A stretch of 64,000 bases of DNA from an uncultured Chthoniobacter sp. (GCA_964609925.1 CAZSUJ010000002.1:8251-72250); one strand, 5' to 3'; shown: positions 22,651-42,672, counted from the first letter of the stretch. Numbers and translations are program-made. Notes: generated by a model not told the origin, from the letters alone.

Positions 22651-32286
<9,636 letters not shown>

Positions 32287-32322
32287 AACTTGGCGGGGCT
32301 GCCGGGGCGCGCCCCGGTGACG

Positions 32323-32514
32323 TCAGACGGATTCGCGCACACTGCGGGGACGCATGTCGGTCCAGACCGCCGCGACGTGTTCCAGGCACTTCTCCTTCGT
32401 CCCGCGCGTGCCCTCGGCCTTCCAACCGGAGGGCGGGGTCTTGTCCGCGAACCAGATCGAGTATTGCCCCTCCTCATTGACAACCACTTGGTGTTCGGTG
32501 ACGGCTTCTTGCAT
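32323..32514 (-). CDS. MbtH-like protein
   Basis: 63 aa. VVVNEEGQYSIWFADKTPPSGWK matches the MbtH N-x-E-x-Q-x-S-x-W...P-x-G-W signature. 36 nt upstream of the NRPS. Confidence 0.9.
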   Translation of the reverse strand: MQEAVTEHQVVVNEEGQYSIWFADKTPPSGWKAEGTRGTKEKCLEHVAAVWTDMRPRSVRESV

Positions 32515-32709
32515 GCGGTGATTGGTTGCGGGTCGGCTTCCGCGCCGACCGGCGGTTGGTGCGCTGCGGGCTCACAGCCCCCGGTTTCTGTTGATCTCCC
32601 CCACGGGAAAGTTGTCCCGGACCGACTGGCGCCTCCCTTCGGGCACAGCCAATCCGCGGGCTGTGACCTTTGCCACACGACACTGTGCGAGGCAAGGGCA
32701 AATCCCTCC

Positions 32710-33639
32710 TCACGCCCGTGGCGACGGCAGCCCGAGGAACTCGGAAAGCACGGCCCCCGCGCGCGCGGGGAAGTTGGCCAGCACATCGGCATGGTCCTGA
32801 TGCGCGAGGTGCTCGTGGCGCGCCATCACCTGATGGCTTCGCAACTGCCGGACAAAATCCGCTCCCATCGCCCGGCTGAAGTCGCTGGGGCGTCCGGACT
32901 GCAGGCCCGCCGAGAAGAGCAGGAAGCGCACCTGCTGCATCCAAGGCCCGAGATGCGCGGAAGGTGACACGCCCAACTGCGCTGCCTCGCTCGCACCCAT
33001 GACCTCGAGAGCCGCGTCGAGCCGTTGACCCAATGCCGAAGCCCCCGCCGCCTGCCGCCGCAAGTGGGCGATGGCCTGCGGCACGTCGTAAAAGGGAACG
33101 TCCAACCCGGCGAACGCCGCCACGCAGCCCTCGGGCAGCCGGTGCCGCTCGTGCAGTTCCTTCTTCACCGTGACCAGTGCGCCGAGATGTGCCCCGGACG
33201 AATACCCCACGAGCAGAAACCCGCCCGAGGCGGCGCCGAACTTCCGTCCGTTCACCGTGAGCCACTTGAGCGCCTTGGCGATGTCATCCGTCATCTCCCC
33301 CACCCCCGCATCGTCGCTTCCAAAGAGCCGGAAATTGACGGAGACGAAGACGAACCCGCGCTCGACAAACCACGACGGCACCCGCTCGGCCGCCCCGGTG
33401 AAGCAAGCCTTGTCGCCTCCCCGCCAATTTCCGCCGTGCAGAAAAACCGCGACGGGACGCTTACCCGAGATGACGCTCCGCGAAGCGTAGTAGATATCGA
33501 GCGTGTTGAGCGCCTGGCTGTATCCCTCGGCCTCGCGGTAAGCCAAATCCCTCTCCACCCGCAGCGCCGGAGCAGGCTCCCGACGCGTCGGCAAGACCAG
33601 CCCGGTCGGGCGGGGATCGCGAGGGCGGCCGGGCAACAT
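32710..33639 (-). CDS. alpha/beta hydrolase (esterase/lipase, fold-3-like)
   Basis: VAVFLHGGNWRGG oxyanion-type motif and GYSSGA nucleophile elbow. Confidence 0.75.
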   Translation of the reverse strand: MLPGRPRDPRPTGLVLPTRREPAPALRVERDLAYREAEGYSQALNTLDIYYASRSVISGKRPVAVFLHGGNWRGGDKACFTGAAERVPSWFVERGFVFVSVNFRLFGSDDAGVGEMTDDIAKALKWLTVNGRKFGAASGGFLLVGYSSGAHLGALVTVKKELHERHRLPEGCVAAFAGLDVPFYDVPQAIAHLRRQAAGASALGQRLDAALEVMGASEAAQLGVSPSAHLGPWMQQVRFLLFSAGLQSGRPSDFSRAMGADFVRQLRSHQVMARHEHLAHQDHADVLANFPARAGAVLSEFLGLPSPRA

Positions 33640-33702: not shown

Positions 33703-34104
33703 CTACCGCGGCTCGATCACCTTCAGACCGTGGAAGTAGTCCCGGTAGTAGCCGCGATCTCGCGCCAGCAAGCGGTCAGCATGGCAAAAGGCATGGGCAC
33801 CAATCAGGAAGTCGGGCAGCACCCGCCGCGCCCCCCCGGATCGCGCGAGATACGCGGCAAACATGGCGCCCGCCAGTTCGGCCGATTCCTGCGAGGAGGC
33901 CACGAACTCGATGTGCCAGTCGGACATGAACTCCCCGAGCAGACCGCCCGGCAAAGCCGGGACCACCTCGGCCAGCACAGATTCCCCGATGACCAAAGCC
34001 CCCGCTTGCATCGCCTCCGACAAAGCCAGACCCGACCGCGTCGCCCAAGCCCTGTCGTCCACGATGACATCGAGCAGAACGCTCGTATCCAGCGCCGTCC
34101 TCAT
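33703..34104 (-). CDS. vapC: PIN-domain toxin (type II TA)
   Basis: 133 aa. N-terminal LDTSVLLD acidic PIN motif. 4-nt overlap with the upstream antitoxin gene. Confidence 0.85.
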   Translation of the reverse strand: MRTALDTSVLLDVIVDDRAWATRSGLALSEAMQAGALVIGESVLAEVVPALPGGLLGEFMSDWHIEFVASSQESAELAGAMFAAYLARSGGARRVLPDFLIGAHAFCHADRLLARDRGYYRDYFHGLKVIEPR

Positions 34105-34331
34105 TCGCCGTCCCGAACCCTCCGGAGGTAACCATCCACATCAGTCCCCGCGCCGGGCAAAGCCCCGCGCCCCCTCCACTTCTCCAGCGGGCTTTGCGCC
34201 AGCACCTTGGTCACCACCAAGCGCCCTCCCTCCTCGCGAAAATCCAGCCGGCTCCCCGTCCTGAGCCCCAAAGCCTCCCGCAGTGCTTTCGGAATCGTCA
34301 CCTGCCCCTTCTCTGACAGAGTCGCTTTCAT
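34101..34331 (-). CDS. vapB: AbrB/SpoVT-family antitoxin
   Basis: 76 aa. KGQVTIPKALREALGL swapped-hairpin AbrB motif. Overlaps vapC (ATGA-type junction). Confidence 0.85.
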   Translation of the reverse strand: MKATLSEKGQVTIPKALREALGLRTGSRLDFREEGGRLVVTKVLAQSPLEKWRGRGALPGAGTDVDGYLRRVRDGE

Positions 34332-35263
34332 ACTTGAATTGTAGCTTTTCTTACAACGAAGTAAAGAAACTCAACTACTCCGAGGGAACCATCGACGGCC
34401 GACGGGATGCCATTCGGGTCTTCCTGCGGTGGTGTGCCCAAAGAACTCTGCTCCGCCCGGCCGAGATCAGCCCATGCACCCTCGAAGCCTATCAAGGCTG
34501 GCTCTGGCAATACACCAAGTCCGATGGCAGCCGACTGAGTTCGAGCACGCAGCGCCAGCGGATCGGAACCCTCAAAGACTGGTTTCGCTGGATGACCAAG
34601 CGCCAGATCATCTCCACCGACCCGGCTTGCGACCTCCGACTTCCCCGGATGGAGACGCGGCTTCCAGCCTCCGCGCTGACCTCTGCCGAGGTTCAGAAAC
34701 TGCTGCGGGTTCCAAAGACAAGAAGCCCGCTTGGCATCCGAGACAGAGCAATCCTGGAGGTCCTCTACGCCAGCGGAGTCCGCCGGGCGGAGGTATGCCG
34801 GCTCGGGCTGACCGACTTAGATTTCGAGCGCCGGACTCTTCGCATCCGCCGCGGCAAAGGCCGCAAGGACCGCGTCGTCCCCATGGGCGAACGGGCCATC
34901 TGGTGGCTTCGCCGTTACCTCGCCGAAGTCCGTCCACGCCTCTGTCTGGATGAGCTTGAGGAGACGGTGTTCCTCGCAGAACGCGGCCACCCCTTCAACC
35001 ACGACGTCCTCTCACACATGGTTACCGCGATGCTGGCGGCCTCCGGATTGGCCAGAAAGGGAAGTTGCCATCTTCTCCGTCACACCTGTGCGACTCACAT
35101 GCTGGAGGGTGGAGCGGACATTCGCTTCATCCAGCAGCTCTTGGGCCACGAGAAGCTGGAAACCACGGCTCTCTACACCCAGGTGACCATCACCCAGCTT
35201 CGAGAAGTTTACGCACGATGCCATCCAGCCGCCCACCTTGCCAAAGGACAGGGTGGCCCGTAG
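34283..35263 (+). CDS. tyrosine recombinase / integrase (XerC/D-like); N-terminus uncertain or truncated
   Basis: Catalytic-domain motifs: ASGVRRAEVCRL (Arg I), RGKGRKDRVVPM, HLLRHTCATHML (H-x-x-R), LLGHEKLETTALYTQV (His...Tyr). The ORF's GTG start overlaps vapB on the opposite strand. An in-frame TTG at 34334 sits just past the vapB start. Confidence 0.85.
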   Translation: MLSESSPAPSLTESLSYLNCSFSYNEVKKLNYSEGTIDGRRDAIRVFLRWCAQRTLLRPAEISPCTLEAYQGWLWQYTKSDGSRLSSSTQRQRIGTLKDWFRWMTKRQIISTDPACDLRLPRMETRLPASALTSAEVQKLLRVPKTRSPLGIRDRAILEVLYASGVRRAEVCRLGLTDLDFERRTLRIRRGKGRKDRVVPMGERAIWWLRRYLAEVRPRLCLDELEETVFLAERGHPFNHDVLSHMVTAMLAASGLARKGSCHLLRHTCATHMLEGGADIRFIQQLLGHEKLETTALYTQVTITQLREVYARCHPAAHLAKGQGGP

Positions 35264-35273
35264 CCTTTAAGCC

Positions 35274-35894
35274 GTGACCAATCCGCGCTCCGGTCGTCCA
35301 CTTCGGCTCAGAACCTCCTCAGCTTCTGGTCGCGGGTCAAGTGCCTCCGGCCGACCTCTGGCGCGGCCTTGCAGGTCGTCCCGTCGGTTGCACATCACAA
35401 GATGGCTATCTCCTGACCCCATCGGGGAGGCTGGTGGGGTCAATTTGTATGCGTATGTGGGAGGAAACTCGATTAACCAGACAGACCCTCGTGGGCTTCA
35501 GCCTGACTCGGTCTCGGCCTCGGCTGTCGGGAATTCAAGTGCTGCTGGGCAGCTTGCTAGAGAGATCCTTCGAGACATGGCAGAGCAGCAGGCTGCTCGC
35601 GCTGCGGCTGCGGCCCAGGCAGCTGCGGCAGCGGCTGCAGCAGAAGAGATCGCAGCAGGAGATACCAGATGCAACTCGCAATCGGAGGCTCAGGACAGAA
35701 AGCCGGCCGATGACAAAAAGCTTGACGACAAGGCTGCTGACAAGGCTGCTCGTGCGCGTGGCTACAAAAACGCAGAGGATGCCAAAGAGCAGAACAATGC
35801 AGTGCCGTCGGGACACTATGATTTATATCAAGGCAAAGACGGCACCATTTACATAAAACGCAAGGGAGGAGCGGGGCCTGGTGAGCCAATTTGA
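35274..35894 (+). CDS. orphan RHS C-terminal cassette 1 (core-end motif + Ala-rich linker + short tip); lacks the RHS core
   Basis: TRWLSPDPIGEAGGVNLYAYVGGNSINQTDPRGL is the RHS core-terminal PxxxxDPxGL junction. The frame opens right after a stop with only a GTG. Upstream 40 codons are Arg/Ser-rich and not RHS-like. Confidence 0.7.
   Translation: MTNPRSGRPLRLRTSSASGRGSSASGRPLARPCRSSRRLHITRWLSPDPIGEAGGVNLYAYVGGNSINQTDPRGLQPDSVSASAVGNSSAAGQLAREILRDMAEQQAARAAAAAQAAAAAAAAEEIAAGDTRCNSQSEAQDRKPADDKKLDDKAADKAARARGYKNAEDAKEQNNAVPSGHYDLYQGKDGTIYIKRKGGAGPGEPI
35398..35419 (+). repeat. 22-nt RHS-junction core, copy 1 (CAAGATGGCTATCTCCTGACCC)
   Basis: Read directly. 21/22 identical to copy 2. Encodes RWLSPDP. 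Confidence 0.85.
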
Positions 35895-35896
35895 TT

Positions 35897-36304
35897 ATGG
35901 AGACTGACACGCAAGGCCGGATTTCTGCTTGCCTTTGGCTTAGCAGCCCAATAGCTCACCCCTCGGTGTTGTCCCGGAAGCTTCAGCAGGAACCTACTGC
36001 ATTCCAGATTAAGGGAGAATTAAAGCCGAACGGCAAGACCCTGTATACAAACTATTCCTGGAAACTTGAATTTGGAACATACTCTGATGGAAAGACAGAG
36101 GATGCGATCGAACATGCGCTCGCATTCGTGCGAGAGCGTCGAGAAGTTATGCGGAGTCTTGCCATCGAGCACGAGTGTTCATCTTACATCTCCATTGTTG
36201 CGTATAAATCGCATTACCATATTGGTCTTGTGCTTAGCGCTGATCACATTCAGGTGCTGAATGAGGCAATGGTAGGCTTTAATGTGAGTATTTACTCTGT
36301 GTGA
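35897..36304 (+). CDS. putative cognate immunity protein 1 (DUF4279-like pattern, recalled not verified)
   Basis: ATG 3 nt after the cassette-1 stop. Lower-GC codons. 135 aa. Layout ISACLWLSS...PT..QIKGE...W.L... resembles DUF4279-type proteins. Confidence 0.55.
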   Translation: METDTQGRISACLWLSSPIAHPSVLSRKLQQEPTAFQIKGELKPNGKTLYTNYSWKLEFGTYSDGKTEDAIEHALAFVRERREVMRSLAIEHECSSYISIVAYKSHYHIGLVLSADHIQVLNEAMVGFNVSIYSV

Positions 36305-37201
36305 ATGAGGCAACTAGATTGCAAGCGGATGGAACATTCTGAGAGCGGGAAAAGGCGTCTTTCCACATCCGTCAACGCCGTCTCAATAGGGCACTGTGCA
36401 ACTCTGAACGGGAGCGTGGCGAGTGGGCGTGTATGTGTGCGGAGTCCAACGGAGGAGGATGCGCAGAATGTCTTCCGGGATGGCGGATGCCGGCGGAGAA
36501 GCCAAACTCGCGAACCAGCCGCCTTGCCAATGACCCAAGCGATCTATAGGCCTGCCTCCATGGCCACGCAGCATCATGGGCGAGGAATGCGGAGCCGCCC
36601 GCGGGCAGTTCATCGACATCGGGCGAGGTTTCAGGTTCGATTGCAGCGCGCTTCCAACCGCGCCCACAGCCCCGAGCTCGCAAGATGGCTATCTCCTGAT
36701 CCCATAGAACGCGTCACGGGGGAGATGCCAGAAACACTTCCAGAAGGGGCGAATCTCTATACTTACACGGCGAATAACCCAGCAAAGTGGTCGGATATTC
36801 TCGGGCTTGAGGTTCCTTCGGCGGACTCGATCAGCGCCAACCCTGGTCTTGCCGCAGCAGCAATGGCAGCCGCAGAGCAGGCGGCTGGAGGAGGTGCCGC
36901 CGCGATCAACGCGACTGCGACCGCGGCAGCGGCGGCGGCTGTTGCAGAGATGGCCGCCGGAGATTCCTCCGCGTCCAAGAACATCTCTGGGAGAATACGG
37001 CGGTGTATTTTGACTGGCTCCAATCCGAATGATGAAGATCCAGATGAGAGGAAAAAGGCTGCGGATGAGTATCGGAAGAAAGCGGAAACAGCCAGAGATC
37101 AAATAGACGCTGAGTTTCGCAGACGTCAAGCCGACTGGTTGGAAGGTAAAGGGGCACATCCCGGAAAGTTGGGTGAGTTCCGCGCAAGCTATGGAAAGTA
37201 G
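36305..37201 (+). CDS. orphan RHS C-terminal cassette 2 (RHS homology only from about 36650 onward)
   Basis: NRAHSPELARWLSPDPI...ANLYTYTANNPAKWSDILGL junction, Ala-rich linker, short charged tip. The 5' about 115 codons have no RHS character, so the real unit is a 5'-truncated fragment. Confidence 0.65.
   Translation: MRQLDCKRMEHSESGKRRLSTSVNAVSIGHCATLNGSVASGRVCVRSPTEEDAQNVFRDGGCRRRSQTREPAALPMTQAIYRPASMATQHHGRGMRSRPRAVHRHRARFQVRLQRASNRAHSPELARWLSPDPIERVTGEMPETLPEGANLYTYTANNPAKWSDILGLEVPSADSISANPGLAAAAMAAAEQAAGGGAAAINATATAAAAAAVAEMAAGDSSASKNISGRIRRCILTGSNPNDEDPDERKKAADEYRKKAETARDQIDAEFRRRQADWLEGKGAHPGKLGEFRASYGK
36681..36702 (+). repeat. 22-nt RHS-junction core, copy 2 (CAAGATGGCTATCTCCTGATCC)
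   Basis: Read directly. Homology to copy 3 extends about 30 nt further upstream (ACCGCGCC[C/T]ACAGCCCCGA[G/C]CTCG). Confidence 0.85.
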
Positions 37202-37715
37202 TCTACCCCGTTCGATTGTTCTGCGCTTTTGCCCCACGCCGGGAATTGCACTGCTTGACTATCCTATTCCGGATGTTGGCTTGGTGGTTGGAGACGGTCA
37301 GGCAAGTGATTCGCCGGGGTGCATTGCGCCTTGGGCTGCTTTTGGTGAGGTGCTCGCCCGCGATGGTCTGTTTGTCGGCTTAGGCTATGAAGTTCGCCAG
37401 ATGCACGCATACGCAAGGACATTGGTTGAGTCTGCGGGGTCTGAGGCCGCCCTTTACCTGCCTGATGATTCGGCCGACGCAGAGCCACTCTACGATACGC
37501 GAGGCCAGGCTTATGTGGAGATGCGGATCTCCCCGATTATCCCTGATCGCATCATGACGTCAGAAGGCATTGACGGCTTCTGGTTCTTGAACTCCGACAA
37601 CTCGGCCTTGATTGCATTTGGAATCTGCGATATAGACCGTCTGCTGCGAGACCATAACCTCAAACTCGGGCCCTTGCAGCCATTTGGTCCGTTTGTTCCG
37701 ATGTGGACGGAATAG
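37191..37715 (+). CDS. putative cognate immunity protein 2
   Basis: ATG (MESSLPRS) overlaps the cassette-2 stop by 11 nt. 174 aa. No recognisable family. Lower GC than the host genes. Confidence 0.5.
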   Translation: MESSLPRSIVLRFCPTPGIALLDYPIPDVGLVVGDGQASDSPGCIAPWAAFGEVLARDGLFVGLGYEVRQMHAYARTLVESAGSEAALYLPDDSADAEPLYDTRGQAYVEMRISPIIPDRIMTSEGIDGFWFLNSDNSALIAFGICDIDRLLRDHNLKLGPLQPFGPFVPMWTE

Positions 37716-37844: not shown

Positions 37845-37852
37845 CCGCTTCC
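37845..37852. repeat. IS66 target-site duplication, left copy (CCGCTTCC)
   Basis: Read directly: 8 bp immediately outside IR-L, identical to 40348..40355. Confidence 0.9.
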
Positions 37853-37936
37853 GTAAGCGTTCCGCCAAGCACCCCCTTGACGAGATCGGGGTGAGGAGTT
37901 CGTAAACGTCGTAGACGTGATGAATGACGCCTATGA

Positions 37937-39559
37937 TCAGGCGGCGTGGGGTGCTTGGCGCTGGCGGTTTTTGAGCCAGTTCTCCGGGGTGAGCTGGTCC
38001 ACGGTCTTGTTGGTGTGCCGAGGGATGTGGGTCAGGACGTCCTTGATGTAATCGAAGGGGTTGATGCCCAGGCGGCGGCAGGCTTCGACGATGGTGAAGA
38101 GGATCGCGCTGCGCTGGCCGCATTCGGCGTGGCCGATGAAGAGCCAGTTCTTCTTGCCCACGGCCGTGGGACGGATGGCATTTTCGACCAGGTTGTTGTC
38201 GATCTCGACGCGGCCGTCTTGGAGGTAGCGCACGAGCAGGTCCCACTGGCCCAGAGTGTAGTCGATGGCTTGGCCCATGGAGCTGGCCGGGAGGTGGGCC
38301 CCGGAGGCCTTCCAAGCGGTCAAGACGCGATGGATACGATGGAGGATAGGAGCGGCGTGGCTGGCACGCTGGGCCGCCCGCAGCTTCGGGCCGGTTCCCG
38401 CCTCACGCATCTGCTGCTCGAGGTGATAGAGCTTGGCGATCTGGCGCAGGATCCATGTGGCCCGCAGGGGCACGTGCTCGCGGGCTTCGTGGAACCGCCG
38501 CCGGGCGTGGGCCCAGCAGCCGACGAGTTCGATGCATGGCTTCTCCCGGGCAAAGCTCGGGTAGGCCGCGTAGCCGTCGCACTGCACCTTGCCGCGGAAG
38601 TCGGCCGGCACGACATGGGCAAGGCAGGCTGCGGCACGGCTCGTTTCCCAGTGGAAGAAGGTGTGACCGCCTGGCGCATGCGCCGTCCACAGGTAGCCGG
38701 TCTTGGTTTTGCCTCCCCCGGGGTCGAGGTAGCGCACGGGTGTCTCGTCGAGTTGGACGTAACCACCGCCCATGACCCCGGTGCGGATGCTTTGGTAGAT
38801 GGGTTGCAGCCAGTCGGCCGCCAGTCCCATCCATCGCGCCAGACTGGCCCGCGGCAACTCGACTTGGTGGCGCCGGCGGAAGATGTCCTCTTGGCGGTAG
38901 AGCGGAAGGTGATCGACGTATTTGCCCACGATGATGGCGGCCAGCAGTCCGGGTGCCGCCGTGCAGCGCTCCTGCAGCGAGGCGGGCAGCGCCGCCACCA
39001 CCGGCACCTCCATGCGCCGCCGGCGGTGGACGTATTTGCGCCGGATCAATCGCCGGCGCAGGAACCTCGCCGGCTCGAAGTCGAGTTGCTCGCTGACCTC
39101 CGCCCCGATCAGCCGGTAGTCGTCCGGAGCGGCCTGCACCTCGGCGGGGTCGATGACTTCCTCCACCAACGGAAGATCCTGGGGCCAGCGTTCCCGCCGG
39201 CTCCGCCGCGCCTTGAGCTCAACCTCCTGGCTTTTGGGCGGATCGGCCTCCTGCAGAGAGGAGGCCCCGACTTTTCCCGAGTCGCTCGCGGGCAACTCCA
39301 GCAAGAGCAACTGCAGTTGGTTGGGGTCGAGCTTCTCGCTGCTCACACCGAAGAGCTTGCGCACCAGCGCATCCACCTTCTGCTCCATCAAACGCAGCCG
39401 CTGCGTCAGCTGCTCGTTCTCCCGCCGCAGCCGCACGTTGTCCTCATCCCGCTTCCTAAGCTCTTCGAGCAACTGCTCCTTGCTTAAGCTTTCCACGTCG
39501 CCATGAGGTAGCAACTTGCATGCCAGTCCCGCCCACTCATCCCTTCTCCTCACGCTCAT
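37937..39559 (-). CDS. tnpC: IS66 transposase TnpC
   Basis: 540 aa. N-terminal leucine-zipper-like region, DETPVRYL, GYLWTAHAP, CWAHARRRFHEA, NLVENAIRP motifs typical of IS66 DDE transposases. Confidence 0.93.
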   Translation of the reverse strand: MSVRRRDEWAGLACKLLPHGDVESLSKEQLLEELRKRDEDNVRLRRENEQLTQRLRLMEQKVDALVRKLFGVSSEKLDPNQLQLLLLELPASDSGKVGASSLQEADPPKSQEVELKARRSRRERWPQDLPLVEEVIDPAEVQAAPDDYRLIGAEVSEQLDFEPARFLRRRLIRRKYVHRRRRMEVPVVAALPASLQERCTAAPGLLAAIIVGKYVDHLPLYRQEDIFRRRHQVELPRASLARWMGLAADWLQPIYQSIRTGVMGGGYVQLDETPVRYLDPGGGKTKTGYLWTAHAPGGHTFFHWETSRAAACLAHVVPADFRGKVQCDGYAAYPSFAREKPCIELVGCWAHARRRFHEAREHVPLRATWILRQIAKLYHLEQQMREAGTGPKLRAAQRASHAAPILHRIHRVLTAWKASGAHLPASSMGQAIDYTLGQWDLLVRYLQDGRVEIDNNLVENAIRPTAVGKKNWLFIGHAECGQRSAILFTIVEACRRLGINPFDYIKDVLTHIPRHTNKTVDQLTPENWLKNRQRQAPHAA

Positions 39560-39896
39560 ACCACGGCCGCAGCTTCGCCCCCCGCAGATCGATCCCGTCG
39601 GTCAGCATCGCCAACGCCTCCGGCCTCAACCTCAATGTCTTCTTGCCCTCGGTGTCCCGCGGCCACGAAAACGTCCCCGCCTCCAACCTCTTGCTCAACA
39701 GCCACAACCCCGTCCCGTCAAAATAGAGCATCTTCAACCGCGTCCGCCTCCGGTTGCCGAAGACAAAGAGCGCCCCGCTCTGCACCTGCTCCTTCATCAC
39801 CGTGCCCACCATCCCCGCCAACCCCTCGAACCCCTTGCGCATGTCGCAGGGCTCCAGGGCCACGAACACCCGCACCGTGCCCGCAAAACTCAGCAC
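39537..39896 (-). CDS. tnpB: IS66 Orf2 (TnpB)
   Basis: VFVALEPCDMRKGFEGLAGMV ... LFVFGNRRRTRLKMLYFDGTGLWLLSKRLE is the IS66 Orf2 signature. GTG start in a GTGCTGA overlap with the tnpA stop. The 195-aa ORF call over-extends upstream. Confidence 0.9.
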   Translation of the reverse strand: MLSFAGTVRVFVALEPCDMRKGFEGLAGMVGTVMKEQVQSGALFVFGNRRRTRLKMLYFDGTGLWLLSKRLEAGTFSWPRDTEGKKTLRLRPEALAMLTDGIDLRGAKLRPWYEREEKG

Positions 39897-40288
39897 CCCG
39901 CCACCCCCATCGCCCGCAGCATCTCCCCGACCCACCGCGCCTGTTGACCATTGACCACTTCCACCCTCACCGCTGCGCCAATTTGCACTCGCATCCCGCG
40001 GCCTGAGGGTGCCGTTCCCATCGGCTCCGACTCCGCCACGGCTTCCACCCACCGCACCGGCGCTTGCCCTGCCGGCGCCGACGCCACCGCGGCCTGACCC
40101 TTGCGCCGCTGCTGCACCCACCAAGCCAAAGTCGGATACTTCACCCCCACCATCGCCGCAAACGCCACCCCACTCATCCCGCTCTTCTCATACTCATCGA
40201 CGATCTCCTCCCGCTTTTCCCGCGGCGTCCTCACTCGCCCTCGTGCATCCTGCACCAATATCTTCCCAATAACTGCCGTATCCGTCAT
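39890..40288 (-). CDS. tnpA: IS66 Orf1 (TnpA, HTH)
   Basis: 132 aa. REKREEIVDEYEKSGMSGVAFAAMVGVKYPTLAWWVQQRRK helix-turn-helix region typical of IS66 orf1. Confidence 0.85.
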   Translation of the reverse strand: MTDTAVIGKILVQDARGRVRTPREKREEIVDEYEKSGMSGVAFAAMVGVKYPTLAWWVQQRRKGQAAVASAPAGQAPVRWVEAVAESEPMGTAPSGRGMRVQIGAAVRVEVVNGQQARWVGEMLRAMGVAGC

Positions 40289-40347
40289 AGCCCCACGCTA
40301 TGACACTTACGCCACCTACGATAGGGGGTGCTCGGTGGAACGCTTAC

Positions 40348-40355
40348 CCGCTTCC
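40348..40355. repeat. IS66 target-site duplication, right copy (CCGCTTCC)
   Basis: Read directly: 8 bp immediately outside IR-R. It lies 3 nt from the stop codon (40359-40361) of the Sel1 immunity gene. Confidence 0.9.
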
Positions 40356-40358
40356 TGT

Positions 40359-40805
40359 TCAGTCTCCGTTGGAAGTCGGCCTGTATTCGCTCAGGTATCT
40401 TCTCAACAACTCATCTCCGGCCGAATACCCATCCGTTTTGGCTTGAATCATCCAAGCCAGACCTTGTTGAGGATCTTTACCCTCATCGATCATGGCTTTA
40501 CCATAATTGAATGCTGCATATGGCACACCCCGTTCTGCGAGCCACTTTAGCCAGTAGTTGCCTTTTGTAGTGTTAGCCTGTTCTCCGGCAAAAGTGTAAT
40601 GCCGATAGAGCCTTTCTCCCGCCGATACATCTCCCGCTCTAGCAGCCATTTCTGCTTCCCGAATCTGGGACGGCGTCAGCGCCTTCTCGCCGCTCATATG
40701 CACCCACCCAGGTGATGTGCTGACTTTAGGGCTGACGCATCCTGGATGGACTAGCATGGCAAAAGCATAAAGCAAGCTTTGGCCGGCAGAAGCGAGAACT
40801 CTCAT
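40359..40805 (-). CDS. Sel1-repeat lipoprotein, putative immunity protein for the upstream RHS tip
   Basis: MRVLASAGQSLLYAFAMLVHPGC lipobox-like signal, then Sel1/TPR-like repeats (YWLKWLAERGVPYAAFNYGKAMI...). Its ATG overlaps the RHS stop as ATGA (40802-40805). Confidence 0.65.
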   Translation of the reverse strand: MRVLASAGQSLLYAFAMLVHPGCVSPKVSTSPGWVHMSGEKALTPSQIREAEMAARAGDVSAGERLYRHYTFAGEQANTTKGNYWLKWLAERGVPYAAFNYGKAMIDEGKDPQQGLAWMIQAKTDGYSAGDELLRRYLSEYRPTSNGD

Positions 40806-42349
40806 CTTGGATAAAATGTCTCCCAACCTGGATTCCCCTTGGGGCTTTGGCCCGCAGGCACAACTGGGTTGTTTCCCACACGAGTATTGCCGCTGTTGTC
40901 GATTATGATGTCGCCGCGCGGGGCAGTGACGGGAGCCCCCAACAGATTTGCCAACTTTTGGCCAAAAGATCTCTCTCCGCCCATGCCTGTTCTACAAGCC
41001 AGCAAAGTTACTCCCTGCCCATTACCATAAGCGGGGTCGTTCATAATGTCGTTGGCCACATCCTTGGGCGTTTGAGCCGGGCCCTCACCTTTCTCCGGAG
41101 CATTCGTGTCATCGAAAATGCGGTCCCCCTTCGGAGCGCGCCCATGCCCACCATAATCATAATCTGGTGTCTGGAAGGCATCGGACCAGTTGTGAATGGG
41201 GTCATTTGGAGAGAAATTGTTTGAATCCAGCAAGCCCAGCGGATCCCAAAGATTCACCGGACTATTGTCTACATAGGCATATAGATTTACTCCACCAGCT
41301 TCCTTTATTGGATCAGGAAATAGCCATCTTGCGAGGTCGGGGCTGTAGGCGCGGTAAAGGGTGAGGTGTAGGCCGGTCGGCGCGTGGTGGTAGTGGCCGG
41401 TGTAGAGCATGTCGGAGCGGAAGTCCCCTTGGCTCCACACGAACGGGCTGGCACTCCATGCGCCATCGTATCGCATCGTGGTTGCCCCGGCCGGCACCTC
41501 GTCGTCGCACCAAACCTGATCCCCTCCTCCACCTGCCGCCCGTTTGCCCATCCGGTCCCACTTGGCCGCACCCCCGTAAAGCGTGAAGCTCACTCCGTTG
41601 AGCGTCTTGCCTTCAAGTCCGACCGCGCTGGCGGGCACTTCCAGCCTCACCCACCTGCCGGTGTCCGGCAGTGCTCCCATCGAGCGGCGGCTGTCAGTCC
41701 CATCGGTGCCTAGAGCGATGTAGTTCGCCCCCCAGTAGGCGCGATGTTCCCAGCTGCTACCGACGCGAAACTGCAGCATGACCTGATCAGGAGCTACAGC
41801 CGCATCCAGATACACGTAGGCCACCAACGTGTCCCCCGTGTTCACGGCCAAGGTTGCGCTGGCCCCATAAAACATCCGCTGGTGCTCGCCCGCCTGGTTT
41901 TCCACTTCCCACACCCTCGATCCATGCGAGGTCACCCTACCATACGGGTCGTAACCATACCTCTCCCTGTCCACCCCTTGCCCATCTACCACTTCCCGGA
42001 TGCTGCCGAGATGATCCTTCGCATAGAAGTAGTTGAGGGTTGAGGGCTGAGCGTTGACGGTAAAACCATCGGCGAAATACCGCCTCACCACGCCGTTGGT
42101 TCCATCGCGTTGCTCGGCAATATCCAGACCGTCATAAACAAGCTGCCGGGTGCTCGTGACCGTGCCGCCACTGTCTTTTTGACTCCGCTTCCGTCCCGGC
42201 AGCCTGTCGCCCTCCGGGTTCGCCGCCGGCGAATCTACCGCGGCATTGCCGGCATGCCTTGCGTCCACGATCTTCACCCGAGGCTGTGGGACCGTCTTCA
42301 CCTCACTGCTCCCTATCGCCACCGGCACTAGGTCGTCAAGCAGGCCCAT
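40802..42349 (-). CDS. RHS-repeat protein fragment (last YD repeats + inserted beta-rich module + core-end motif + C-terminal tip); N-terminally truncated
   Basis: YD repeats (YFYAKDHLGSIREVVD, YGYDPYGRV) and the junction YRAYSPDLARWLFPDPIKEAGGVNLYAYVDNSPVNLWDPLGL. Only 515 aa. The upstream frame closes with a stop at 42392-42394, and the upstream sequence is not RHS-like. Confidence 0.8.
   Translation of the reverse strand: MGLLDDLVPVAIGSSEVKTVPQPRVKIVDARHAGNAAVDSPAANPEGDRLPGRKRSQKDSGGTVTSTRQLVYDGLDIAEQRDGTNGVVRRYFADGFTVNAQPSTLNYFYAKDHLGSIREVVDGQGVDRERYGYDPYGRVTSHGSRVWEVENQAGEHQRMFYGASATLAVNTGDTLVAYVYLDAAVAPDQVMLQFRVGSSWEHRAYWGANYIALGTDGTDSRRSMGALPDTGRWVRLEVPASAVGLEGKTLNGVSFTLYGGAAKWDRMGKRAAGGGGDQVWCDDEVPAGATTMRYDGAWSASPFVWSQGDFRSDMLYTGHYHHAPTGLHLTLYRAYSPDLARWLFPDPIKEAGGVNLYAYVDNSPVNLWDPLGLLDSNNFSPNDPIHNWSDAFQTPDYDYGGHGRAPKGDRIFDDTNAPEKGEGPAQTPKDVANDIMNDPAYGNGQGVTLLACRTGMGGERSFGQKLANLLGAPVTAPRGDIIIDNSGNTRVGNNPVVPAGQSPKGNPGWETFYPR
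41310..41331 (-). repeat. 22-nt RHS-junction core, copy 3, inverted relative to copies 1 and 2 (CAAGATGGCTATTTCCTGATCC on minus strand)
   Basis: Read directly as the reverse complement of GGATCAGGAAATAGCCATCTTG. 21/22 identical to copy 2. Confidence 0.85.
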
Positions 42350-42597: not shown

Positions 42598-42672
42598 GCG
42601 CGGTTAGCTCAGTGGTAGAGCACCTCCTTGACACGGAGGGGGTCAGAGGTTCGAACCCTCTATCGCGCACCA
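42598..42672 (+). tRNA. tRNA-Val (anticodon GAC), CCA encoded
   Basis: Manual cloverleaf: acceptor GCGCGGT/ATCGCGC; D-arm GCTC-AGTGGTA-GAGC; anticodon arm CCTCC-TTGACAC-GGAGG; variable GGGTC; T-arm AGAGG-TTCGAAC-CCTCT; discriminator A + CCA. Followed by a T-run. Confidence 0.92.

Follow-up and report, generated by a model that had tools for sequence, protein, structure and literature searches.

An integrase-linked array of RHS toxin tips in an uncultured Chthoniobacter sp. is probably the decayed right end of a small integrative element that attaches at the RHS core/tip junction

Several described systems resemble the locus analysed here, which lies in a 64,000-nt stretch of DNA (the window) from an uncultured Chthoniobacter sp. 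In orphan rhs-CT/immunity modules (Jackson 2009, PMC2935791; Poole 2011, PMC3150448; Koskiniemi 2014, PMC3967940), as in this locus, the tips are 5′-truncated at a DPxGL-ending junction, an immunity gene comes after each tip, short core stubs are kept, and former tips are pushed downstream. In polyimmunity loci, a Xer-like recombinase likewise adjoins polymorphic-toxin immunity genes and recombination was proposed as the builder, but the paper (Zhang et al. 2012, PMC3482391) gives the adjacency only and describes neither an att site nor a primase module nor the in-frame delivery of a tip. The rAID-1 arrays of Bacteroidales (Ross 2019, per PMC12247911) share with our locus a tyrosine recombinase followed by co-oriented short toxin-linked genes and a GC content below that of the host genome; rAID arrays are described there as orphan immunity genes with conserved intergenic motifs, formed by a mechanism given as unknown. 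Integrons (IntI, attI, attC) are similar in that a tyrosine recombinase moves promoterless units, whose expression depends on a resident signal upstream. P4-like satellites and PICI-type islands are similar in combining a divergent XRE repressor with a primase-helicase and, by the att site, a terminal tyrosine integrase, and in occurring in tandem or circular forms. Such satellites and islands usually target tRNA or housekeeping genes. The studies of orphan rhs modules reportedly ascribed displacement to homologous recombination with incoming DNA.

The window recombinase is a tyrosine integrase of the PRK01287 'XerC-like' clade (34334–35263, plus strand), lying in an ORF (34283–35263) whose called start and onset of homology both fall at the TTG at 34334. 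It matches Pfam Phage_integrase (2.6e-44), shares 59–64% identity with 13 family members and, in an alignment with them, keeps the catalytic R, K, HxxR, H, and Y residues. It is 5′-truncated: the homologues are 349–366 aa long, the first ~47 conserved residues are missing, and its homology in tblastn begins at residue 48–50 of full-length relatives. It also has a long branch, with 23 of the 136 columns that are invariant among the homologues altered, and there is a second, differently truncated relic at 89% nucleotide identity. The recombinase is probably inactive, and the recombinase-linked reservoir proposed in the earlier note is unlikely to be active here because this copy is a truncated and divergent relic. 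To the left, on the minus strand, lie vapC (PIN, 33703–34104; Pfam PIN 0.0026) and vapB (MazE/AbrB-type, 34101–34331; Pfam MazE_antitoxin 1.4e-12), the start codon of vapB sitting 2 nt from the recombinase TTG; this pair (33703–34331) is the left breakpoint of the relic and lies outside the element. The recombinase is of neither IntI nor XerC/XerD type; when it was compared with the IntI, XerC/XerD, and invertase models, all scores were below cut-off: 125.4 bits against 265 (TIGR02249) and 81.9 against 435 (NF011946) for IntI, with both matches broken into two stretches; 241 against 335 (TIGR02224) and 237 against 330 (TIGR02225) for the XerC/XerD equivalogs; and 75 and 59 bits against ~221 for FimB/E-type invertases. 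The NCBIfam model NF002331, which would name the protein XerC, gave 377 bits against a cut-off of 371. Unlike the single housekeeping chromosomal XerC/D, the integrase family reaches at least six copies in one chromosome.

The stretch from the integrase stop to the first junction (35264–35399, plus strand) was recognized as a probable remnant of the element's right arm in an anchored alignment of 28 post-integrase junctions. It holds CCCGTCGGTT (35380–35389), a weak match to the family motif AAAACCGNRTCGGGTCG and degenerate when compared with CCGNRTCGGGT (information content per position over the 28 junctions); the motif is conserved in 27 related loci. The first copy of the att core (35400–35423, plus strand; AGA TGG CTA TCT CCT GAC CCC ATC, encoding RWLSPDPI) is of attR type, with the element arm on its left and tip1 on its right. 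The junction lies 140 nt past the integrase stop, compared with 243–942 nt in relatives when counted from the end of the tblastn match. In host genes, AGA, CTA, and TCT account for only 1.1%, 1.0%, and 4.1% of the synonymous codons for the respective amino acids, and the rare codons AGA-TGG-CTA are common to all three junction copies of the window.

Two same-strand units follow the recombinase, as the earlier note had described; both are 5′-truncated RHS C-terminal fragments with a junction (TIGR03696, 43.6 and 39.6 bits), tightly coupled to a small ORF, and the cassettes are indeed less GC-rich than the flanks (0.47–0.60 versus 0.65–0.72). The tip1 ORF (35274–35894, plus strand) comprises an arm-encoded leader, the junction (35388–35498; junction HMM E = 1.5e-16), and an Ntox33 toxin domain at ~35703–35891 (Pfam 3.7e-9). 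Only 2 nt separate its stop from the ATG at 35897 of imm1 (35897–36304, plus strand), a DUF4279 (FdL-Imm5) gene (Pfam 3.2e-8). In Salmonella, a PAAR-RhsA-Ntox33 effector adjoins a DUF4279 gene that was proposed to provide the matching immunity (PMC13304343), and DUF4279 is counted among the immunity families (PMC9424270); by these family assignments, unit 1 pairs a predicted Ntox33 tip with DUF4279 immunity, a combination already published. The tip2 ORF (36305–37201, plus strand) opens with ~112 codons that are not RHS-like, followed by a short RHS-core stub, NRAHSPELAR (36657–36685), the second att-core copy (36683–36706; junction HMM 1.7e-9, 36641–36808) and, past the junction, a C-terminal domain of 130 aa with no match in Pfam or PDB. 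It is overlapped by 11 nt by imm2 (174 aa; 37191–37715, plus strand; called from the ATG at 37191), which matches no family or PDB entry and is a candidate immunity gene by position only. Among the four co-oriented ORFs after the recombinase, two are toxin tips and only imm1 falls in a known immunity family.

A third, minus-strand unit and an IS66 element had been overlooked in the earlier note. The statement that the window holds no RHS core stands for full-length RHS genes only, because a 5′-truncated RHS fragment of 515 aa lies at 40802–42349 (minus strand; TIGR03696 73 bits; junction HMM 1.3e-16). Its frame stays open to 42391, remnants of YD repeats are still present, its core ends in YRAYSPDLAR, and its C-terminal domain (tip3; 142 aa) is without assigned type; tblastn links the fragment to the RHS cores of three related loci (L004, L036, and L066). 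It contains the third att-core copy (41306–41329), whose orientation is opposite to that of copies 1 and 2. An inverted repeat of 50 nt, centred on the att core and 92% complementary, connects tip2 (36657–36706) with tip3 (41306–41355). The left flank of tip1 is element-arm-like, and those of tip2 and tip3 are RHS-core stubs. The 3′ end of the fragment is overlapped by 25 nt by imm3 (155 aa; 40359–40826, minus strand; from the ORF list), a candidate immunity gene by position whose sequence weakly matches Sel1 repeat proteins in PDB (E = 0.0014). The convergent units 2 and 3 are separated by a simple insertion of an intact IS66 (tnpA, tnpB, transposase; 37853–40347, minus strand; NCBIfam transposase 1.3e-109, TnpB 8e-31), which has 25-bp terminal inverted repeats and a perfect 8-bp target duplication, CCGCTTCC, at 37845–37852 and 40348–40355. 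The right-hand neighbour of the fragment is a tRNA-Val(GAC) gene (42598–42672, plus strand; ARAGORN). Across the 64-kb window the junction HMM gave three matches only, all less than 6 kb from the recombinase, and tblastn found no full-length RHS, primase, or HTH gene. All three units have the core 3′ end and DPxGL-ending junction of orphan rhs-CT/immunity modules, with an immunity gene just downstream, recognized by family in unit 1 and by position only in units 2 and 3. The window differs from those modules in having no main, co-oriented full-length rhs gene upstream; RHS core is present only as the inverted fragment.

A tblastn search with the primase covered 82 sequences, namely 81 loci and the window, two of the loci being the window's own; a primase was found in 69 of the 82. 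In 80 or more related loci, integrase homologues sit in a fixed module of HTH repressor, ~1000-aa primase-helicase, and integrase, in that order in the gene calls of L003–L005 and L107–L125. The search of related genomes suggested in the earlier note revealed that the linkage of recombinase and tip recurs in Verrucomicrobiota, Acidobacteriota, Kiritimatiellota, and other phyla; Bacteroidales are absent from the best 76 genome loci, and IMG/VR contained no close relatives of the element. An RHS junction lies within 1 kb downstream on the same strand in 45 of 75 integrase copies and within 3 kb in 7 more, and the junction HMM found none within 3 kb in 23. Judged from sequence comparison, this linkage is not coincidental. 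Upstream, a junction lies within 8 kb in 22 of 38 copies, and a long RHS gene is usually found 5–8 kb from the integrase; in L004, L010, L036, L054, L066, and L076 the upstream junction is in an RHS ORF running past the contig start, and in L023 it is part of an orphan, not of a full RHS gene. Every junction in the related loci is on the strand of the integrase, whereas copy 3 in the window is inverted.

Intact relatives are 6.8–8.3 kb long and comprise the junction core, a toxin tip that is promoterless and paired with its immunity gene, and variable cargo; these are followed by a repressor of XRE type, encoded on the opposite strand, a DnaG-type primase of ~1000 aa with a fused P-loop domain, the integrase (349–366 aa), and a conserved arm whose end lies ~9 nt short of the W/F codon in (W/F)LSxDP. 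No packaging or capsid-related genes were seen in these elements. Unlike the P4-like satellites and PICI-type islands, the element appears to enter at the junction within a toxin gene, whose ORF it completes. One Bryobacterales chromosome carries at least six copies of a 4.7-kb core that are 97–99% identical and end at the junction. Since these near-identical cores have differing tip cargo and segmental duplications in that genome are 100% identical over 8.4 kb, gene conversion or duplication contributes there.

Both attachment sites and the circular or tandem junction could be reconstructed in two element families, the P0035 type and the P0004 type. In L032, L076, and L036, attL is flanked on the left by RHS core and attR by element arm, and DNA identity between the two begins at the W/F codon. 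In the P0035 type, attL, attR, and another attR whose tip differs (a Tlde1 domain) were compared with an attP-type junction, which consists of the left side of attR and the right side of attL and switches at C|TTCCT. The P0004 type, with an integrase 62% identical, has the same core as the window, TGGCTATCC, and follows the same attP logic with an identical core of 70 nt. In both families the predicted crossover point within the (W/F)LSxDP junction is the W/F codon. Since recombination takes place in the tip junction itself, the possibility raised in the earlier note, an ordinary integrase with att sites elsewhere, does not hold. Terminal contig overlaps, which tandem arrays can produce as well as circles, define units of 6921 nt in L113 (127-nt overlap), 8327 nt in L121 and L122 (two samples, two assemblers), and 6779 nt in L007. 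No empty site (attB) was recovered, the contigs breaking at the repeated core.

Taken together, the locus is probably what is left of the right end of a small integrative, and probably replicative, element whose attachment site is the RHS core/tip junction. As the attL, attR, and attP-type junctions suggest, the element's copy of the junction would recombine with that of a resident rhs gene, so that the element's tip would become fused in frame to the resident RHS core and the old tip with its immunity gene would land just downstream of the integrase. The outcome would be C-terminal displacement through site-specific recombination, and the tips downstream of the integrase in relatives look like displaced former tips rather than captured cassettes. 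This differs from the orphan rhs-CT model in that relatives appear to use a dedicated integrase, with the W/F codon as its defined crossover point, and a tip brought in by the element. What survives in the window is the truncated integrase, the degenerate arm, the attR-type junction with tip1/imm1, tip2/imm2, which is an older orphan, and the inverted RHS fragment with tip3/imm3; the main rhs gene has probably been lost, and with it the primase and the repressor. The locus is classed as a relic rather than an intact member because no primase or HTH gene is present and the integrase lacks residues 1–47.

The earlier note had favoured an integron-like or rAID-like organisation that serves mainly for defence via the immunity genes. 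On this reading, a resident recombinase would capture promoterless tip/immunity cassettes singly into an array. It is unlikely, even though the array directly follows the recombinase in the same orientation, arrays of 2–3 tips stand behind the integrase in relatives such as L005, L041, L047, and L066, polyimmunity loci next to XerC/D-type recombinases (PMC3482391) and rAID arrays (PMC12247911) are documented precedents, and the segment between any two junction copies could in principle be excised by the same enzyme. The integrase is far below the IntI cut-offs and co-oriented with the array, against the divergent intI of integrons; the units abut or overlap, with no attC-type imperfect inverted repeats or other intergenic repeats between them, and the site is within a protein-coding junction. 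In integron terms the rhs gene would be the platform here, and the recombinase is itself carried by the mobile unit: in relatives it is accompanied by repressor and primase, and the entire unit including the recombinase circularises or tandemises. As for the rAID-1 arrays, the differences are that every immunity gene in the window retains its toxin tip, that the recombinase family travels with primase and repressor, and that conserved intergenic motifs are absent among the window units, the only repeat being the 24–50-nt coding junction. The truncation of the window recombinase also speaks against capture by a resident enzyme.

The locus could also be a classical orphan rhs array built by homologous recombination, with a phage, ICE, or Xer recombinase that is unrelated to it and adjoins it by chance. 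Tips such as tip2 and tip3, orphaned with a short stub of core, are the expected products of RecA-mediated displacement (PMC2935791, PMC3150448), a tRNA gene is close by, and XerC is the NCBIfam name of the protein; however, the adjacency recurs in 45–52 of the 75 homologue copies, where strand and spacing are constant and the arm motif is conserved, the identity of attL and attR starts at a single codon, and the integrase is multi-copy per genome and below the XerC and XerD equivalog cut-offs, which makes chance adjacency very unlikely. Also very unlikely is a shufflon-like switch, in which the recombinase would invert the 4.6-kb segment between the tip2 and tip3 junctions and swap the tip/immunity gene after the RHS fragment. 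The inverted repeat centred on the att core, the recombinase gene adjoining the inverted junctions, and a geometry that would yield in-frame exchange are consistent with it, but the RHS fragment is 5′-truncated and without a delivery domain, the recombinase is without its N-terminus, junction copies in related loci are directly oriented, and the best invertase score is low; the sole other assemblies of the window locus, which do not span the far arm, keep the same order.

In summary, the locus probably represents a remnant of an RHS-junction-targeting element, of which we found no description in the literature. Its present function may be limited to immunity, with residual defence by the putative immunity genes being possible, or to providing tips as recombination substrates for rhs genes elsewhere. 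In its intact form, the element appears to swap RHS toxin tips in many soil and freshwater bacteria.

The tip/immunity locus of the window is decayed, and its value is mainly as a lead to a family of small elements that would plug toxin tips into rhs genes by site-specific recombination. Its tyrosine recombinase, on the plus strand (ORF 34283-35263, called start TTG at 34334), exceeded the cut-off of a single model, the NCBIfam subfamily model NF002331 ('XerC'; 377 bits versus 371), and scored below those of the XerC and XerD equivalogs, the IntI models and the invertase models. We found 6235 homologous proteins at E <= 1e-10, and the full-length ones among the matches listed were mostly 343-376 aa in length. 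The window recombinase can be aligned only from homologue residue 48-50 on, and the N-terminal block that it lacks is well conserved among the homologues. It shares 59-64% identity with 13 homologues, compared with 68-95% among the homologues themselves, and deviates at 23 of the 136 columns that are invariant in them. The vapB start codon of the adjoining vapBC pair (33703-34331, minus strand) lies 2 nt away from the recombinase TTG, so that there is no space for a promoter, and this boundary is a rearrangement breakpoint. A second relic of the same lineage, with 89% nucleotide identity, was found in another sample (L126, Logan SRR27421871); its truncation is more extensive (from about residue 115), and it adjoins an Obg-like GTPase gene. 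A viral link of the recombinase was rejected, as an IMG/VR search with the recombinase alignment gave only relatives with at most 36% identity. The 22651-33639 stretch contains, all on the minus strand, a gene for an NRPS of 3211 aa, an MbtH-like gene (32323-32514) and a BD-FAE/alpha-beta hydrolase gene (32710-33639); these resemble a secondary-metabolite cluster, the end of which lies directly left of the relic.

Downstream of the recombinase, two units of a toxin tip and a coupled small ORF follow on the plus strand: tip1 (35274-35894) with imm1 (35897-36304), and tip2 (36305-37201) with imm2 (37191-37715). Both had been recognized in the earlier note, and its spacing, an offset of 3 nt in unit 1 and an overlap of 11 nt in unit 2, recurred in independent gene calls on an identical Logan contig; a third, inverted unit had been overlooked. 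This unit consists of a 515-aa RHS fragment carrying tip3 (40802-42349, minus strand) and imm3, a weakly Sel1-like ORF of 155 aa (40359-40826, minus strand) that overlaps the end of the fragment. The GC content drops to 0.47-0.60 across the tip/immunity units. In tip1, the RHS-associated core motif is accompanied by an Ntox33 domain; imm1 belongs to DUF4279. In Salmonella, a PAAR-RhsA-Ntox33 effector adjoins a DUF4279 gene that has been proposed as its cognate immunity gene (PMC13304343), and DUF4279 is the immunity family FdL-Imm5 in a published list (PMC9424270). Searches of Pfam, NCBIfam and PDB sequences gave no family match for imm2 or for the C-terminal domains of tip2 and of the RHS fragment (tip3). 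Before the junction, the conserved RHS core/tip boundary (W/F)LSxDP, and after its last YD-type repeats, the RHS fragment contains about 170 residues (approximately 150-320; 41380-41900, minus strand) that do not resemble RHS and matched no family; this stretch may represent an inserted domain. The frame of the fragment stays open until approximately 210 nt from a tRNA-Val(GAC) gene (42598-42672). An island integrated at this tRNA was rejected, as no direct repeat of the tRNA was found at the left end, and the tRNA itself is located 5′ of the region. Terminal inverted repeats of 25 bp, together with a perfect 8-bp duplication, identify the IS66 element between imm2 and imm3 (37853-40347) as a simple late insertion; the perfect target duplication also rules out an inversion of tip3 by IS66.

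All three tips share a repeat at the DNA level, AAGATGGCTAT(C/T)TCCTGA(C/T)CC(C/A)AT, and tip2 and tip3 have 92% identity in a 50-nt stretch that includes about ten RHS-core codons upstream. AGA-TGG-CTA is used in all three junction copies, although in long host genes AGA, CTA and TCT account for only 1.1%, 1.0% and 4.1% of their respective synonymous codons. The presence of rare codons in every copy suggests that the copies are related by descent or that the DNA itself, and not the peptide alone, is constrained. The left flanks of tip2 and tip3 are RHS-core stubs (NRAHSPELAR and YRAYSPDLAR, respectively), which indicates that both were formerly joined to the same kind of core. Tip1 is in the position of attR, the right junction of an inserted element: the distance from the integrase stop is 140 nt to tip1 and 10 nt to the opening of its ORF, the latter as in the relatives, and its left flank shows no RHS core and a degenerate form of the arm motif, the arm being the element end 3′ of the integrase. 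Neither a primase, nor a repressor, nor a main rhs gene is present in the window. Taken together, the attR-type tip1, the core stubs of tip2 and tip3 and the loss of primase, repressor and main rhs gene suggest that the locus is an element relic with displaced tips. Apart from the missing main rhs gene, the window units qualify as orphan rhs tip/immunity modules. A hairpin with a 12-bp stem (TGACCCCA...TGGGGTCA) lies within the tip1 junction (35414-35442), and a GGGTC/GACCC element is found again in the arm motif of the family (TCGGGTC) and in the D-P codons; its recurrence suggests candidate inverted binding sites for the integrase. The exact core AGATGGCTATYTCCTGAYCC gave 13 matches in metagenomes, none of them in an RHS context, and these were dismissed as chance matches.

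A genome scan for recombinase relatives gave 76 best loci, in Verrucomicrobiota, Acidobacteriota, Kiritimatiellota, Lentisphaerota, a Polyangiaceae MAG and others. Among the carriers of the integrase are two cultured isolates, Luteolibacter algae KCTC 22040 (L027) and Roseibacillus ishigakijimensis KCTC 12986 (L012). Gene calls around the homologues repeatedly gave the same order: a minus-strand XRE-type HTH gene comes first, in some cases followed by a small ORF, and then come a protein of about 1000 aa, the recombinase and short ORFs. The large protein combines a DnaG zinc ribbon with a primase core and a Toprim domain, and weakly matches P-loop/DUF5906; this primase is present in 69 of the 82 sequences searched (81 loci, two of which are the window's own locus, and the window). 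All matches of a junction-peptide HMM in the related loci were on the recombinase strand. A junction was located within 1 kb downstream in 45 of 75 recombinase copies and within 3 kb in 7 more, and the remaining 23 had no HMM-detectable junction within 3 kb. Upstream, 22 of the 38 copies with enough sequence had a junction within 8 kb, in several loci inside an RHS ORF reaching past the contig start. The arm motif TAC(R)AAAACCG(Y)(R)TCGGGTCG, common to 27 related loci, lies directly upstream of the junction that follows the recombinase and ends approximately 9 nt short of the W/F codon. Four elements have conserved cargo ORFs of 170-209 aa (L003 4946-5575, L004 3694-4206, L010 and L023; minus strand), in which HxH-type motifs (HYHWLLG, HQHAVIAG) and Y..K motifs recall the HUH Rep proteins of rolling-circle replication; those of L003 and L004 gave no match in Pfam or PHROGs.

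In L032, L076 and L036, the upstream junction is preceded by a genuine RHS core and the downstream junction by the element arm. The W/F codon is where DNA identity between the two junctions starts, and L032 and L076 have 18 and 21 identical nt, respectively. One family, the P0035-type, has a recombinase protein that is 100% identical on 11 contigs from one project. The order in L107 is RHS (1102 aa), a 147-aa ORF, HTH, primase, integrase, a 374-aa tip ORF and a 142-aa ORF, while that in L116 is integrase, a 329-aa ORF, the same 147-aa ORF, HTH and primase. L113 has an exact terminal overlap of 127 nt, giving a 6921-nt unit. Alignment of the P0035-type contigs revealed that the junction of L116 and L113 combines the left side of attR with the right side of attL (the left junction of an inserted element), with the switch at C^TTCCT. 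In L111 and L112, the same element is followed by a different tip, with a Tlde1 domain. Contig L127 (JGI 3300056802) begins, at 1-20, exactly at the inferred attR crossover C^TTCCT, the pattern expected from a sample in which alternative left flanks coexist. In a second family, the P0004-type, the integrase is 62% identical to that of the window, the attL and attR of L117 share 70 identical nt starting at TGGCTATCC, which is nearly the window's core, and the same 8327-nt unit was obtained in L121 and L122, from two samples and two assemblers. Judging from these contigs, the unit that circularises or tandemises comprises a tip together with its immunity gene; terminal overlaps are the same for circles and tandem arrays. 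The empty site, attB, was not recovered in a search via P0121, the displaced immunity protein of L107, because contigs break exactly at the repeated core. Between their integrase and att site, P0004-type elements (L117-L125) also encode a HicA-family toxin and have an ORF of 72 aa, so that the element arm carries what may be a toxin-antitoxin pair.

On the Bryobacterales chromosome OZ252030.1, at least six copies of a 4.7-kb HTH-primase-integrase module (L050, L052, L054, L056 and L058 among the loci) are 97-99% identical, with one inverted, and two distant positions share, with 100% identity, an 8.4-kb stretch that includes an RHS fragment. No junction-like sequence was found at the HTH end, the left boundary of these copies. 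Since near-identical cores carry differing cargo and the 8.4-kb duplicates are perfect, conversion and duplication act too, and gene conversion or segmental duplication probably contributes to the Bryobacterales copies. A more far-reaching scheme, which we regard as rather unlikely, is that the integrase acts on all RHS junction copies, so that junction-bounded tip/immunity units would be excisable and insertable cassettes and the rhs gene their expression platform. This would be an integron-like system with the recombination site inside protein-coding sequence; selection on the DNA site would maintain the unusual AGA-TGG-CTA-TCT codons, and inverted copies, as in the window, would allow segment inversion and tip switching. 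The integron- or rAID-like organisation proposed in the earlier note is unlikely for the window locus, the recombinase of which is below the IntI cut-offs and which does not show the intergenic motif of rAID clusters. XerC/D-type genes adjoining polyimmunity loci have been reported, without a mechanism (Zhang et al., 2012; PMC3482391). In the literature, of which our coverage was incomplete, we found only such recombinase-adjacent polyimmunity loci and rAID, and no description of an integrase targeting the RHS junction.

The reading that we favour is the delivery of tips by the element itself. The element, a junction-bounded unit of 6.8-8.3 kb, would carry a tip and an immunity gene to a resident rhs gene, integration would set its tip in frame behind the RHS core and thereby complete a toxin gene, and the old tip/immunity pair would be left behind as an orphan. 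If so, one would expect to detect both attP (the element's own joined ends) and attB junctions, to find the crossover at the W/F codon and to see the arm motif serve as a binding site of the integrase. For annotation, a 'XerC' call beside short RHS fragments may flag such an element or its remains. The interest thus rests with the element family rather than with the decayed copy in the window. The arrival of new tips at rhs genes and the displacement of old ones have since 2009 mostly been ascribed to homologous recombination. If the elements work as proposed here, they would represent a dedicated, sequence-specific route of tip delivery across several poorly studied phyla.
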